Source: a virus
Taxonomy: Duplodnaviria; Heunggongvirae; Uroviricota; Caudoviricetes
Reading direction: 5' to 3' (one strand)
Length of the DNA: 11,884 bases
Virus record (IMG/VR): IMGVR_UViG_2703719368_000012
Span: 1 to 11,884 of that record
Positions 2,814 to 11,884 of the stretch are shown piece by piece; the stretch's first letter is position 1; every line of letters starts with the position of its first letter. Below the pieces are notes generated by a model, which was not told where the DNA came from, searched no databases, and saw only the letters and a program-made list of their open reading frames with translations. Both the position numbers and the translations under genes were made by a program.

Positions 2814-3386
2814 TATCGCGTCCTCAACAATGAATTTTGTGATGCGGTGCCTGGTGCCTCCAGGTGACGTTAACCAGTTAACAATTAACGCCGGATACAG
2901 AGCATTCTCGTTACTCAGCAAATGACCGCTTTACCGATTTAACTGTTCCGCGTGCGCTGAGCCGCATTCACCGCATCACAAAATTCACTTTTAAAAAAGG
3001 GCGGCAGAGCAGTTACGGAGTAAAACTGATACCGCCAAATGTCACCAGAATATTGATAACAGAGGGCGTTGCAGCGGGGTTGTCACTTAAGCGTATGGTC
3101 AACCTGACAACCCGGTGTCCTCAACGGGGAAAGAATAACCCCGCCATACTTACCGCCGCGCCATTTCGCGGATTGCCACAACCGGAAGCGCACGGTCGAA
3201 TTAAATTTAACGACGGCTCTAAGGGAGAAGGACTTCGCCGTGCACTTTCGTGTTATGCCCTGACTTTTCAGGGATATATCCTTTCAGTAAACTGTCAGTG
3301 CCGGATTCTTATCTGTGTCCGGCGCACGACCACACGTAGCAGCGTGTTGGTCTCCATTTTTAATTCAGCCCTTAATGGAGGATAAA

Positions 3387-4694: not shown

Positions 4695-4722
4695 GAAAGA
4701 GGGAGTATGAAAATTGTTCAAC

Positions 4723-5010
4723 TCAGATAGAGAAGGGAAATTGTCGCCGAGAATGTGTCACGCTTACAATCTCAATGCTTGAAGCAGCTACTCTGTACAG
4801 GATTATGTAGTTAGGGTGGGTCACGATCTCTCTCAATCCAGAAACCCGTTCGCTTGGTGGATATAAGTACGGATGCTCAGATAGAGGTAATACCGATGTT
4901 TCAATGCGTATTTTTAGTCTACGTGCTGCCGGTGGGTTCTCCTTGGCGATGTAAGTTATGATCTGGCGCAAATCATCGCGAGCAGACGGTAGCCATAAAA
5001 TGGGTAACAT
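4723..5010 (-). CDS. Type II toxin, ParE/RelE family (95 aa)
   Basis: Product MLPILWLPSARDDLRQIITYIAKENPPAARRLKIRIETSVLPLSEHPYLYPPSERVSGLREIVTHPNYIILYRVAASSIEIVSVTHSRRQ carries the ParE/RelE signature pattern (W..A..DL..I..YI, GLRE, YII.YR, V.H..R). Its start overlaps the upstream small gene stop by 1 nt (TAATG). Confidence 0.7.
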   Translation of the reverse strand: MLPILWLPSARDDLRQIITYIAKENPPAARRLKIRIETSVLPLSEHPYLYPPSERVSGLREIVTHPNYIILYRVAASSIEIVSVTHSRRQFPFSI

Positions 5011-5201
5011 TACTCGCTCTTGTTAGTTACAGCAATTTGAGCAATAAGATTTTCCATTTCAGCCATTACCTCGTCATGTGGAATTGCGGGGCGAGTGTCT
5101 GCAAGGCTTGACGTTACTTTAGTGCGCAACCATTCGTTGTAACTGTTTTCTTGTTCGGTAGTTTCGAATTCTGAAACTATCGGAGAAAGGGCTGTACCCA
5201 T
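5010..5201 (-). CDS. Putative cognate antitoxin of the ParE/RelE-family toxin (63 aa)
   Basis: ATG at 5199-5201 with GAGGAG 5 nt upstream; small acidic product (MGTALSPIVSEFETTEQENSYNEWLRTKVTSSLADTRPAIPHDEVMAEMENLIAQIAVTNKSE); immediately upstream of and overlapping the toxin gene in the canonical antitoxin-first order. Confidence 0.6.
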   Translation of the reverse strand: MGTALSPIVSEFETTEQENSYNEWLRTKVTSSLADTRPAIPHDEVMAEMENLIAQIAVTNKSE

Positions 5202-5738: not shown

Positions 5739-6011
5739 ATGCTAGATAGCACTCGCGAAAAAATTAGGCAGAAATACACTCAGGCTGAAATAGGTCGTTA
5801 TATGGGGGTCGCTCAACAGACTGTTTGGCAATGGTTTAGCTTTGGCGTTCCCCCAAAGCAGGTAATTCCGTTATGCCAACTAATGAAGTGGGAAGTTACC
5901 CCGCATGAAATCCGCCCAGATATTTATCCTAACCCAACCGACGGTTTACCTGTTGGATGTAAGGTTAACACATCAAATGCGCCGGAGTTGATTCATGAAA
6001 ATCAAGCATGA
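5739..6011 (+). CDS. ydaS: Cro-like HTH regulator, YdaS family (90 aa)
   Basis: ATG at 5739 with GGAGG 8 nt upstream; HTH AEIGRYMGVAQQTVWQW and a C-terminal ...EVTPHEIRPDI motif recalling the YdaS-family ELRPD motif; first gene of the rightward operon. Confidence 0.7.
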   Translation: MLDSTREKIRQKYTQAEIGRYMGVAQQTVWQWFSFGVPPKQVIPLCQLMKWEVTPHEIRPDIYPNPTDGLPVGCKVNTSNAPELIHENQA

Positions 6012-6420
6012 ACACATCCGCATGGCGATGAATGCCTGGGCGCATCCGGACGGCGAAAAAGTACCGGCTGCGAAAATTACCAAAGCGTATTTCGAGCTGG
6101 GAATGACGTTCCCGGAACTGTATGACGACAGCCATCCGGAAGCCATGGCTCGCAATACTCAGAAAATTTTCCGCTGGGTGGAGAAAGACACTCCTGATGC
6201 GGTTAAAAAAATTCAGGCGTTGTTACCAGCGATCGAAAAAGCGATGCCGCCTCCGCTGGTGGCCCGAATGCGCAGCCACAGTTCCGCTTATTTTCGGGAG
6301 TTGGTAGAGACGAAGGAACGGCTGGTGAAAGATATTGATGATTTCGTTGCATCAGCGATCGTTCTGTTCGATCAGATGAATCGTGGTGGCCCGGCAGGAA
6401 ACACTCTGGCTGTGCATTAA
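5995..6420 (+). CDS. ydaT: YdaT-like protein (141 aa), toxic-when-derepressed family in Rac
   Basis: Product begins MKIKHEHI, as I recall for Rac YdaT; start overlaps the end of the ydaS-like gene by 17 nt; GGAG about 8 nt upstream. Confidence 0.7.
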   Translation: MKIKHEHIRMAMNAWAHPDGEKVPAAKITKAYFELGMTFPELYDDSHPEAMARNTQKIFRWVEKDTPDAVKKIQALLPAIEKAMPPPLVARMRSHSSAYFRELVETKERLVKDIDDFVASAIVLFDQMNRGGPAGNTLAVH

Positions 6421-9026: not shown

Positions 9027-9614
9027 ATGGAAACCGTATCTGACGCACTGAAAGCACTGAAAAAAGCCTCTTCACATGTGGTGGCAGCTCGCCTTGGAAT
9101 CAGTCGTGAAGAGGCTGTCAACGAGCTGTGGGAACTCAAAATAAATGGCGTCGTTGATAAAACTGGTCACACCTGGTTTCTGGCTGGCGAAGGTGAATCC
9201 CGGGTAACCGAAGAGCGGCCAGTAAAATCTGAAGCACAGGATATGCTGACCGGGGAGGTCGAACAAAAAGTTACCGCAGACATGATGATTGAGTTTATCG
9301 GTCAGGATGGGGCTAAAACGTGTGAGGAACTGGCGGGTAAGTTCGGTGTCAGTACTCGCAAGGTTGCTTCCACGCTGGCGGTGGTAACCGCAACGGGGCG
9401 GCTGGCACGCGTTAATCAGAACGGTAAATTTCGTTACTGCATGCCGGGCGATAATTTACCAGCAGAGCCGAAAGCCGCGCTGGTAACGGAAAGTGATGGT
9501 AAGGCCTTTCCTCAGAACGTGTTGTATCGGAAAAGTGATTGCCGGAGGCGCTTATGGCAAAAGTATTTACACAGGAAGAGCGGGAAAAAATTAAAGGGCA
9601 GGTTGTTGAGCTAG
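9027..9614 (+). CDS. Hypothetical prophage protein with winged-helix-like repeats (possibly DUF1627-like), 195 aa
   Basis: ATG at 9027 with GGAGG 8 nt upstream; two similar HTH-like segments (ARLGISREEAVNELWELKINGVVDKTG and ELAGKFGVSTRKVASTLAVVTATGRLARV). The last 25 or so codons overlap the next gene and look low-quality. Confidence 0.6.
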   Translation: METVSDALKALKKASSHVVAARLGISREEAVNELWELKINGVVDKTGHTWFLAGEGESRVTEERPVKSEAQDMLTGEVEQKVTADMMIEFIGQDGAKTCEELAGKFGVSTRKVASTLAVVTATGRLARVNQNGKFRYCMPGDNLPAEPKAALVTESDGKAFPQNVLYRKSDCRRRLWQKYLHRKSGKKLKGRLLS

Positions 9615-9967
9615 TACGCCGGAGTGGGCGCGAGACGTTACGGCAACTGGAAGCCAAGACAGGTGCGACAAGATATCTGATGAGCGTTCTTGCCAGAGAG
9701 CTGGTTGCCAGTGGCGATGTATACAACTCTGGTTACGGGTTATTCCCATCTGAACAGGCTCGTAAGGACTGGCAAAACGCCCGCAAAAAACTATCGAGGG
9801 CAAAACTGAAGAAACCGGTTGTGGTTGATCCTGACCTTATCTGGTCATTACCAGACGGAGAAATACGCCGCTATGACAGGCAATTGAACATAATTTGTAG
9901 TGAGTGCCGTAACAGTGAAGTGATGCAGCGAGTTTTGATATTTTACACAGGAGTAATGATGGAATAG
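9554..9967 (+). CDS. Hypothetical prophage protein (137 aa)
   Basis: ATG at 9554 with GGAGG 5 nt upstream; product MAKVFTQEEREKIKGQVVELVRRSGRETLRQLEAKTGATRYLMSVLARELVASGDVY... includes a winged-helix-like segment and a CSECRNSE motif near the C-terminus. Confidence 0.55.
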   Translation: MAKVFTQEEREKIKGQVVELVRRSGRETLRQLEAKTGATRYLMSVLARELVASGDVYNSGYGLFPSEQARKDWQNARKKLSRAKLKKPVVVDPDLIWSLPDGEIRRYDRQLNIICSECRNSEVMQRVLIFYTGVMME

Positions 9968-10318
9968 TGAAAATAACATGAAACCTTTGGATTCTGGTGT
10001 TTCAGTGGATGGGAAAAGAGCAGATACATAGAAAATGAATAGCAATAATTCACAGTCTGGATGTTGTTTGTATGCTTATAAAATGATCCTAGTATGCATT
10101 GCCGGAGTTGAATCAGCTCCAATGAAGAAACTGAGAGGAGTATTTAGAAGATAGCTAAATGGATGTAATTATTAGTATCTAAAAAATAGTATTTTTGAAA
10201 TGGGTCTAAGAACACAACAATGTACAAATGAGAAGTTATCTTTTAATATGTTCAAAGACCCATTAGGATTGATATCAGTTATGTTAGCTAGATTGATAAA
10301 GTGATTACATATTTTCTG

Positions 10319-11092
10319 TTATATGCTGAAATGAATAATGCTATTCCAGAGTGCAGCAGAGAAAGTCTCCTGATGATTGAGCTCTGGAAATTGTACAATA
10401 GAAAAATTACTGTATTTTTCTGTCAAAATATTTCTCAAAACAGATTCCGCTTTGATGGCTTCAGGATATAAAGATGCGGAGTAATCAAGGCTAAGATTTC
10501 CGTTAAGCAAGCATATACTTTTAGTGTGCTTTGATTCTGATATATCATCTTTAATTATCTTGATGATTCTTTCATTCTGCCATAGAAGTGATGGTGCAGA
10601 TATATAATAATAGTTAAAGCATGAATTATTTTTTAAGCAATCAAGCACAAAAATAGCACCTAGCGAGTGCCCCCATATACCGATTCTGGAACTGTTCGGA
10701 GCAATAGTACTAACCCATGGCATGATCTGAGTTAGTAATAATTCTCGGAAAGACTGGCTTCCTCCACCAGTAAAGTAGATCCATGCTGGTTTAGAGTTAT
10801 CAACAATAGCATTTTCACCATCAGGAGTATAATCGTAAGCACGGCGATGAATGCTAAGGTTATTCCAAGATTCATAACCAAGTGTAACTAACACTGGTGG
10901 ATTGGGTAGTGCATCAATAACAGGCAGAATATCAGAAATGTAATTGTTGGCACTATTCCCATCAAGTATATAAAGAGTTGCATTATTTTTTTTAATGTTT
11001 TTTGGAGTAAAAATACATATTTTATATTTGGTGTCATGGTTAATTGAGTTAAATATGCGTGTTTGACAATGAATGTCCATATGTTTAGTCAT
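10319..11092 (-). CDS. Alpha/beta-hydrolase esterase (PF00756-like putative esterase / siderophore-esterase fold), 257 aa, no signal peptide; AT-rich cargo (moron) gene
   Basis: Catalytic nucleophile elbow GHSLG; N-terminal LYILDGNS motif and IFTP strand typical of the Fes/IroE/esterase D family; GGAG-type RBS upstream of ATG 11092; local base composition is strongly AT-rich relative to the flanking prophage genes. Confidence 0.8.
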   Translation of the reverse strand: MTKHMDIHCQTRIFNSINHDTKYKICIFTPKNIKKNNATLYILDGNSANNYISDILPVIDALPNPPVLVTLGYESWNNLSIHRRAYDYTPDGENAIVDNSKPAWIYFTGGGSQSFRELLLTQIMPWVSTIAPNSSRIGIWGHSLGAIFVLDCLKNNSCFNYYYISAPSLLWQNERIIKIIKDDISESKHTKSICLLNGNLSLDYSASLYPEAIKAESVLRNILTEKYSNFSIVQFPELNHQETFSAALWNSIIHFSI

Positions 11093-11492
11093 GCGTTCTC
11101 CCCATGAGCATTAAAGGATGCTTAAGATATGCTATGTCACTGATAAAAAATTTGTTGTGTGTGTTTAGTTATTTTATCTACCTCCATTATGATTTAAGAC
11201 TGATATATGTTATCAGCAAAGGTACATCGTTATTATTTTACCTGTCAATACATTTGATATTGATTATCGTTTACATCGCTTGCTTAGGAAATTGAAGGCA
11301 GGTAACTATCATGTCAATGAACTAACCCACAGTCTAACGTACTTCTTTCCCCAATCACCAACAACCAAATTCCTGTTATCACCACTGGGATTTTGGCGCA
11401 ACTTCATGGTGCAGAGGTAAATAGCATCAAGCAAAATCTCTTTTTCCGTTGTTGTCCTTATGGGACGTCTGTCTTTCTGACCGATTTCATAT

Positions 11493-11521
11493 TGGCGAGG
11501 TAATGGGAAGTTAAGTAGAAT
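11493..11521 (+). promoter_or_regulatory. Putative hok mRNA promoter
   Basis: TTGGCG (11493-11498), 17-nt spacer, TAGAAT (11516-11521); predicted start near 11529, just upstream of the GAGGC/GCCTC leader hairpin (11536-11550). This parallels the plasmid R1 hok leader as I recall it. Confidence 0.45.
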
Positions 11522-11589
11522 AGCTGCGGGTGCTTGAGGCTATCTGCCTCGGGCATGAACACCAACGGCAGATAGAGAAAAGCCCCAGT

Positions 11590-11657
11590 TAACATTACGC
11601 GTCCTGCAAGACGCCTAACATTAATCTGAGGCTCAATCTATGAACGGCAAATCTAGG
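11590..11657 (-). ncRNA. sok: Putative Sok-like antisense RNA (type I antitoxin), approximate boundaries
   Basis: Minus-strand candidate -10 TAAGAG (plus-strand 11664-11669) sits opposite the start region of the upstream ORF, as in R1 sok; a hairpin GCGTC/GACGC (11599-11614) lies at the expected 3' end. Ends are not determinable from sequence alone. Confidence 0.35.
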
Positions 11658-11696
11658 TTAGCCTCTTACGTGCCGAAAGGCAAGGAGAAGCAGGCT

Positions 11697-11852
11697 ATGA
11701 AGCAGCAAAAGGCGATGTTAATCGCCCTGATCGTCATCTGTTTAACCGTCATAGTGACGGCACTGGTAACGAGGAAAGACCTCTGCGAGGTACGAGTCCG
11801 AACCGGCCAGACGGAGGTCGCTGTCTTCACAGCTTACGAACCTGAGGAGTAA
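11697..11852 (+). CDS. hok: Hok/Gef-family type I toxin (51 aa); an in-frame upstream ATG at 11640 gives a mok-like leader reading frame
   Basis: Product MKQQKAMLIALIVICLTVIVTALVTRKDLCEVRVRTGQTEVAVFTAYEPEE is a canonical Hok-family sequence (single TM helix, conserved Cys, C-terminal YEPEE), closely matching my recollection of HokD/RelF. The track ORF 11640-11852 extends the frame upstream by 19 codons. Confidence 0.85.
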   Translation: MKQQKAMLIALIVICLTVIVTALVTRKDLCEVRVRTGQTEVAVFTAYEPEE

Positions 11853-11859
11853 GAGACCT

Positions 11860-11881
11860 GGCGGGGGAGAAATCCCTCGCC
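11860..11881 (+). terminator. 3' stem-loop of the hok mRNA (terminator or fold-back element); downstream part beyond window edge
   Basis: GGCGGGGG (11860-11867) pairs with CCCTCGCC (11874-11881) including one G-U pair, loop AGAAAT; begins 8 nt after the hok stop codon. The U-tract, if any, lies outside the window. Confidence 0.4.
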
Positions 11882-11884
11882 ACC

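Follow-up and report, generated by a model that had tools for sequence, protein, structure and literature searches.

The hok/mok/sok (parB) system of plasmid R1 is a plasmid-borne locus of post-segregational killing. Its mok reading frame starts at nt 116-118 of the mRNA and its hok frame at nt 174-176, an offset of 58 nt that places the two out of frame (PMC9841398), as the original prediction for the locus studied here had stated. Stop codons in mok that lie downstream of the hok start are without effect; what matters is translation up to the hok start and not the Mok product (PMC9841398). A transient, metastable structure at the 5′ end of the R1 hok mRNA has been described, as has a terminal hairpin that protects the truncated mRNA, and the element names tac, fbi, and ucb are used below as in the summary of the R1 model given in the same source (PMC9841398).

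A second system, hokW-sokW, is carried by the Stx2 phage 933W (Sakai prophage Sp5) and has been established by experiment as a type I toxin/antitoxin pair that is activated when the prophage is induced: HokW is toxic, sokW counteracts it, and expression of the 51-aa hokW ORF alone suffices for toxicity (PMC8621323). Induction with mitomycin C leads to the loss of sokW and to a RecA-dependent accumulation of HokW in the inner membrane, and deletion of hokW-sokW halves the release of phage (PMC8621323). HokW, a close paralogue of the Hok protein analyzed here, is reported to be 44% identical to the Hok of R1 (PMC8621323).

Here, we analyze a hok locus at the end of an 11,884-nt stretch of phage DNA (IMG/VR record IMGVR_UViG_2703719368_000012), which is called the window throughout. 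We are highly confident that this locus is a canonical hok/mok/sok cassette, intact in structure, which belongs to the hokD/hokW clade and is situated in the early-right (nin-like) region of a lambdoid prophage of Escherichia coli O157:H7. The locus is already known, and it is an ordinary textbook type I toxin-antitoxin cassette. Its sequence and structural elements can be compared directly with those of annotated or tested loci; from this homology, we infer how it would be transcribed and processed, whether its product would be toxic, and what its role might be.

The Toxin Gene and Its Closest Relatives

The protein-coding part of the locus consists of the following elements.

11697-11852, plus strand: hok toxin gene, 51 aa, of the hokD/hokW type (PF01848; RefSeq name hokD)
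11682-11687, plus strand: hok Shine-Dalgarno sequence AAGGAG, 9 nt 5′ of ATG 11697 (sequence reading; conserved in alignment A1)
11640-11852, plus strand: mok reading frame of 70 codons, which shares the frame of hok and ends at the common stop codon (ORF list; 87% identity to MokW of phage 933W)
11629-11632, plus strand: mok Shine-Dalgarno sequence GAGG, 7 nt 5′ of ATG 11640 (invariant in alignment A1)

The 51-aa ORF on the plus strand matches the Hok/Gef toxin family (Pfam PF01848 HOK_GEF, E = 5.8e-23, 80.7 bits; cutoff, 22) over all 42 profile positions, and it is identical to HokD of E. coli K-12 at 50 of 51 residues (98%), a single residue being different; it is thus the canonical Hok-family toxin that had been predicted at this place. 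The NCBIfam Hok models give it 48 bits, which is under their curated cutoff of 73 because these models are subfamily-specific. The assignment of the locus to the hok/sok type of type I toxin-antitoxin systems is fully supported.

The mokW/hokW/sokW locus of 933W is about 93% identical to the window locus in nucleotide sequence over 376 nt. In both, Mok (70 aa) and Hok (51 aa) are read in one frame, and Sok, 71 nt long, begins 8 nt inside mok; the two Mok proteins are 87% identical, and the 5′ leader and the region from the AGCCUCUUAC box to AAGGAG are identical. The two loci differ in mok codons 2-5, which face the 5′ end of Sok (AACGGCAAATC in the window, CTGAACACATG in 933W), in the Hok C-terminus (FTAYEPEE vs. 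FVDYESEK), and in their flanking genes.

The hokC (gef)/mokC/sokC locus of K-12 likewise has mokC (69 aa) in frame with hokC (50 aa), with sokC starting 8 nt inside mokC, and shares 79% protein identity with the window across 57 aligned residues, Hok among them. Unlike the window locus, however, it is chromosomal and adjacent to IS186 rather than phage-borne, and its Sok hairpin is without the 16-nt extension. Plasmid R1 resembles the window in the order of the elements, in tac/fbi, in ucb, in the logic of the mok Shine-Dalgarno sequence, and in the position of the Sok promoter, but its mok (70 aa, 58-nt offset) is out of frame where that of the window is in frame, and the window locus is borne by a phage rather than a plasmid.

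The hokD (relF) gene of the K-12 cryptic prophage Qin has lost its upstream half. As in the window, DUF968/ydfU and then antiterminator Q follow it (order hokD-rem-ydfU-ydfT), and the hok ORF, the 3′ hairpin, fbi, and the terminator are kept with 97.7% identity (L004 2025-2289 vs. window 11683-11884). The homology begins only 14 nt 5′ of the hok ATG, next to relE, hokD following relBE, and the promoter, tac, mok, and sok of the window are all missing. No match to the Rfam leader model (RF01794) was found at K-12 hokD. Because the homology starts 14 nt upstream of the ATG and the leader match is missing, K-12 hokD is a decapitated form of the window cassette. In the O157 copy the locus is intact, where K-12 keeps only a leaderless hokD.

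Promoter, Leader, and Hairpins of the hok mRNA

11492-11521, plus strand: hok promoter, -35 TTGGCG at 11492-11497, 18-nt spacer, -10 TAGAAT at 11516-11521 (consensus scan, 9/12 matches)
11528-11884, plus strand: hok mRNA, cut by the window end (start from RF01794; about 62 nt more to the terminator at 13482-13509 of the identical locus L001)
11530-11556, plus strand: 5′ nascent (metastable) GAGGC/GCCTC hairpin (11-bp stem, -18.8 kcal/mol, z = -5.0)
11660-11669, plus strand: conserved AGCCUCUUAC box of the hok leader (invariant in alignment A1)
11859-11882, plus strand: 3′ stem-loop just past the hok stop codon (10-bp stem, -19.6 kcal/mol, z = -4.8)

Both the promoter and the terminator of hok were located by consensus scan. 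The promoter is the sole sigma-70-like match in the 650-nt region scanned, where 0.6 would be expected by chance, and its -10 box sits 6 nt 5′ of the mRNA 5′ end defined by Rfam at 11528. A promoter with these two boxes had been claimed earlier and is indeed present, but its spacer is 18 nt long and not 17, the -35 box beginning at 11492.

An Rfam scan, which had been proposed as a check on the locus, gives a match of the hok-mRNA leader to RF01794 at 11528-11702 (plus strand) at 105.6 bits (gathering score, 59), and covers all 157 model positions (1-157). Elsewhere, this model scores 118 bits at hokC, 110 at hokB, and 87 at an R1-like plasmid locus. Although RF01794 is named "sok antitoxin," it aligns over the whole 157-nt leader to the sense strand of the hok mRNA, and the annotated K-12 sokC is encoded on the other strand from the match (L002 502-654, minus strand). 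The match therefore certifies the leader and not the antisense RNA as such, and in annotation its strand should not be taken as that of Sok.

The 5′ GAGGC/GCCTC hairpin that had been read from the sequence folds with its 11-bp stem within the first 35 nt of the hok mRNA. It is absent from the minimum free energy (MFE) structure of the complete mRNA, as is expected for a transient structure of the R1 type. The 3′ stem-loop, also noted before, folds as well; its counterpart in R1 is the hairpin that ends the processed, translatable mRNA.

The Predicted Sok Antisense RNA

11655-11683, minus strand: Sok promoter, -35 TTGCCT at 11683-11678, 17-nt spacer, -10 TAACCT at 11660-11655 (sequence reading)
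11648 to 11578, minus strand: predicted Sok antisense RNA of about 71 nt, in which a 5′ tail covering the mok start region is followed by a long hairpin and then GGGGCUUUU (gapless transfer of the 933W sokW annotation)

The predicted Sok RNA folds into a long hairpin followed by a U-tract (-35.9 kcal/mol, z = -6.7), and its start at 11648 agrees with the annotated 5′ ends of sokW and sokC, both of which lie 8 nt inside mok. The sequence thus predicts a cis-encoded Sok that is provided with a promoter and a terminator of its own. The original prediction had pointed to TAAGAG (11668-11663, minus strand) as the -10 box of this promoter. That motif is present, but no more than 9 nt separate it from the sole plausible -35 box, and we rejected it in favor of TAACCT, which with its 17-nt spacer fits both the annotated Sok 5′ ends and a promoter mutant of hokW. 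In the latter, a promoter-less construct, the -10 box at the position corresponding to TAACCT was mutated (primers YO-421/422; PMC8621323).

Folding of the hok mRNA and Proposed Mechanism

11528-11539, plus strand: tac element GGGUGCUUGAGG (MFE folds of the full-length and the 3′-truncated mRNA)

The window contains neither fbi nor the terminator because its end cuts the 3′ end of the hok mRNA. Both are located 18-65 nt past the window end and were read from the identical locus L001 (NZ_AP018488.1), where the sequence continues with CCUCAACGCACCCGC and then a rho-independent terminator. In the MFE fold of the full-length 421-nt hok RNA (z = -7.4), the 5′ GGGUGCUUGAGG pairs with the 3′ CCUCAACGCACCC, and the mok Shine-Dalgarno sequence is partly occluded, the GGC of GAGGC (11630-11632, plus U 11633) being paired with AGCC at 11581-11584. 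When the last 47 nt are removed, tac pairs instead with AAGCCCC (ucb, 11580-11586) and the mok start comes to lie in a hairpin of its own. With fbi taken from L001, the predicted folds thus display both the long-range tac/fbi pairing and a refolding after 3′ trimming, and the rearrangement so predicted is the one that the R1 model describes as a switch from tac/fbi to tac/ucb.

At the window locus alone, the tac/fbi duplex is only modestly above shuffled controls (5 of 200 shuffles were as good). The pairing is conserved in a comparison of 44 hok loci, which places a complement of the 5′ end about 45-57 nt past the hok stop codon in most of them, with compensatory changes in tac and fbi, for example GGUGCUUGAGG/CCUCAACGCACC, GGCGCUUGAG/CUCAAGCGCC, and GGCGCCUGAGG/CCUUCAGGCGCC.

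By homology with R1 and hokW, the following mechanism can be proposed. The hok mRNA would start near 11528 and be made as an inert full-length form, in which tac would pair with fbi about 49 nt past the hok stop codon (outside the window) and the mok Shine-Dalgarno sequence would be partly sequestered. Slow trimming of the 3′ end would then allow tac to pair with AAGCCCC at 11580-11586 and so expose the mok start hairpin. A short, constitutive Sok RNA (11648 to 11578, minus strand) would pair with the mok initiation region and block mok. Should Sok be lost, ribosomes entering at the mok ATG 11640 would cross the region of the hok Shine-Dalgarno sequence and lead to initiation at 11697, so that the membrane toxin would be made. 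Most likely, then, the window copy works like hokW-sokW at the RNA level.

The Frame of mok Relative to hok

The ATG at 11640 lies 57 nt 5′ of the hok ATG 11697 and in the same frame, which stays open through the hok Shine-Dalgarno sequence and ATG to give 70 aa. This in-frame ORF had been singled out earlier; its existence is confirmed, and GAGG lies 7 nt before its start. It had also been presented as a departure worth a second look, and here we disagree, since the same layout is found in mokC/hokC, in mokW/hokW, and in a large share of the loci of the two surveys described below (18/58 and 82/102). In K-12, mokC (16751-16960) and hokC (16751-16903) end at a common stop codon, and mokB/hokB are out of frame. 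A record labeled "phage Rac," 92% identical to the window locus, has its mok out of frame, and pMTY1886, a plasmid whose Hok is identical to that of R1, has a 57-nt offset with mok in frame (RF01794, 87 bits). At least 1000 contigs on record carry the exact 70-aa Mok sequence of the window.

The first survey was a genome-wide pattern scan with the AGCCUCUUAC box. It gave many chance matches in unrelated phyla, and their removal by a filter for a Hok-like ORF left 58 non-redundant loci from diverse Enterobacterales. An SD-preceded mok start in frame with hok is present at 18 of these. Mok is out of frame and reaches the 3′ end of hok at nine loci, is out of frame with a stop inside hok at nine others, and is out of frame with a stop at or before the hok ATG at 11; the remaining 11 have no SD-preceded mok start at the expected position.

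The second survey dealt with the spacing of the two start codons in 120 IMG/VR phage contigs having the conserved leader 15-mer, together with seven comparison sequences including the window; 102 loci were scored, as follows.

57 nt, in frame, 70/51 aa: 82 loci
57 nt, in frame, truncated hok (56/37 aa): 1 locus
56 nt, 19-codon mok whose end overlaps the hok start in ATGA: 12 loci
58 nt, 68-codon mok: 7 loci
Unscored (no call or chance match): 11 loci

All three frames occur in the family, and the frame of mok relative to hok is therefore not a defining feature of it. Since it is mok translation and not the Mok product that matters in R1, the frame would be expected to drift, and the finding that it is free to vary agrees with the published evidence on mok translation. 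Tandem arrays of two to four hok/sok cassettes, about 0.5-1 kb apart, were seen at loci L013, L021, L050 (Photorhabdus), L066, and L096, and within one such array the cassettes differ in their mok frame.

When mok is in frame, its translation by itself yields a 70-aa, N-terminally extended Hok. One could accordingly imagine that this Mok-Hok fusion is the main toxin or an additional active one, that the 51-aa start is secondary, and that the locus is functionally unlike R1 with its dispensable out-of-frame Mok. Ribosomes that finish mok in frame 0 must indeed make a full Hok with a 19-aa basic N-terminal extension, MNGKSRLASYVPKGKEKQA, and the in-frame layout dominates among the phage-contig loci with the conserved leader 15-mer (82 of the 102 scored). 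We nonetheless consider such a functional fusion improbable. The 51-aa hokW ORF is toxic by itself, and the hok Shine-Dalgarno sequence AAGGAG and the ATG are conserved whether mok is in frame or not. Moreover, among loci 92% identical to that of the window, mok is out of frame in some and in others ends after 19 codons at the hok ATG, so the extension is dispensable within the clade. The sequence of the extension is set by conserved RNA boxes and a hypervariable loop rather than by protein conservation. The excess of in-frame loci, finally, is accounted for by shared ancestry at a constant 57-nt spacing; selection for a fusion protein was rejected as its cause, the other two frames being used by close relatives.

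The Hypervariable Loop

11643-11654, plus strand: hypervariable loop (mok codons 2-5) in the hairpin at the mok translation start, facing the Sok 5′ end (alignment A1, 34 unique leader variants; hairpin fold)

The 34 unique leader variants include at least 10 distinct versions of the loop, while the hairpin is preserved and its flanks are nearly identical. Loci that differ in the loop are otherwise 92-97% identical (L126-L128, L129-L248). Tentatively, these 11-12 nt could serve as a specificity "barcode" that prevents cross-neutralization among co-resident hok/sok copies, a speculation that we hold possible rather than probable; in the in-frame class, the same variation would also diversify the N-terminus of the 70-aa Mok-Hok.

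Genomic Context and Prevalence

A 445-bp query (window 11440-11884) is 100% identical in many E. coli O157:H7 chromosomes and at least 99% identical in 1054 E. coli records, in which the RefSeq gene name is hokD. Of 5426 complete E. coli genomes, 4000 contain at least 80% of this segment, at a median of two and up to nine places per genome. The value of the locus as a discovery is small: the cassette exists in thousands of sequenced E. coli, and its close paralogue hokW-sokW has already been studied. For annotation, its value lies in the fact that RefSeq marks only the 51-aa "hokD" here and no mok or sok features.

The locus had been placed at the edge of the prophage. In NZ_AP018488.1, it is instead in the middle, with genes for DUF968, RusA, antiterminator Q, tRNAs, a holin, and a terminase downstream of it. 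Its immediate flanks there are replication-module genes and an alpha/beta-hydrolase gene on one side and a hypothetical gene, DUF968, RusA, and antiterminator Q on the other; the tRNAs and the holin, lysozyme, and terminase genes are farther downstream. The alpha/beta-hydrolase gene (RefSeq; a 257-aa ORF) occupies window 10319-11092 on the minus strand, just upstream of the hok promoter. Between them, window 11100-11440 contains an ORF fragment that RefSeq gives as an incomplete pseudogene, followed by a terminator-like hairpin at about 11453-11467.

In NZ_AP018488.1, the prophage that matches the window is a defective one: it carries IS insertions, and its terminase and portal genes are frameshifted. 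A role in phage release may for that reason not apply. The cassette could help lysis on induction as hokW does, could promote retention of the prophage, or could do nothing in a defective prophage.

Many of the chromosomal hok loci of K-12 are inactive. The window locus might in the same way, and like K-12 hokD, be a decayed and silent remnant that hitch-hikes in a defective prophage; the IS elements and frameshifted late genes of the matching prophage fit such a history, and K-12 hokD demonstrates that the clade can lose its regulatory half. Decay of this kind would hardly, however, have left the promoter, tac, ucb, the mok Shine-Dalgarno sequence and ATG, the Sok promoter and terminator, the hok Shine-Dalgarno sequence and ORF, and the 3′ hairpin all intact, along with fbi and the hok terminator as read from L001. 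The near-identity of the 445-bp query (at least 99%) in 1054 records and the functionality of the 93%-identical hokW-sokW locus also speak against it, and we regard a silent remnant as very unlikely. The intact cassette remains our preferred reading.

The window does not coincide with L001 throughout. By BLAST, the two are 100% identical over window 9784-11884, yet the window lacks the insertion of ISEc8 (IS66 family) that splits a DUF977 gene in NZ_AP018488.1 (L001 8367-11345) and is absent at window ~9515-9790. The window must thus come from a different strain or prophage copy than L001.

Other toxic modules had been suggested for the window, namely a YdaT-like gene, a ParE-type toxin, and a Kil-like gene. 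This part of the original prediction held to the extent that the matching region carries, according to RefSeq, a RelE/ParE-RelB pair, a YdaT-family protein, and DicB, and that DicF is recognized by Rfam. With coordinates transferred from L001, the RelE/ParE-family toxin and its RelB antitoxin lie at window ~4722-5200 (minus strand) and the YdaT-family protein at ~5994-6419 (plus strand). In a blastn comparison with K-12 relBE, the relBE pair of the window gave no match. The full-length DicF antisense RNA is found at window 2999-3050 on the minus strand (Rfam RF00039, 76.9 bits), and dicB is annotated just upstream in the matching region; together, DicF and dicB form the cell-division-inhibition module of Qin-like prophages.
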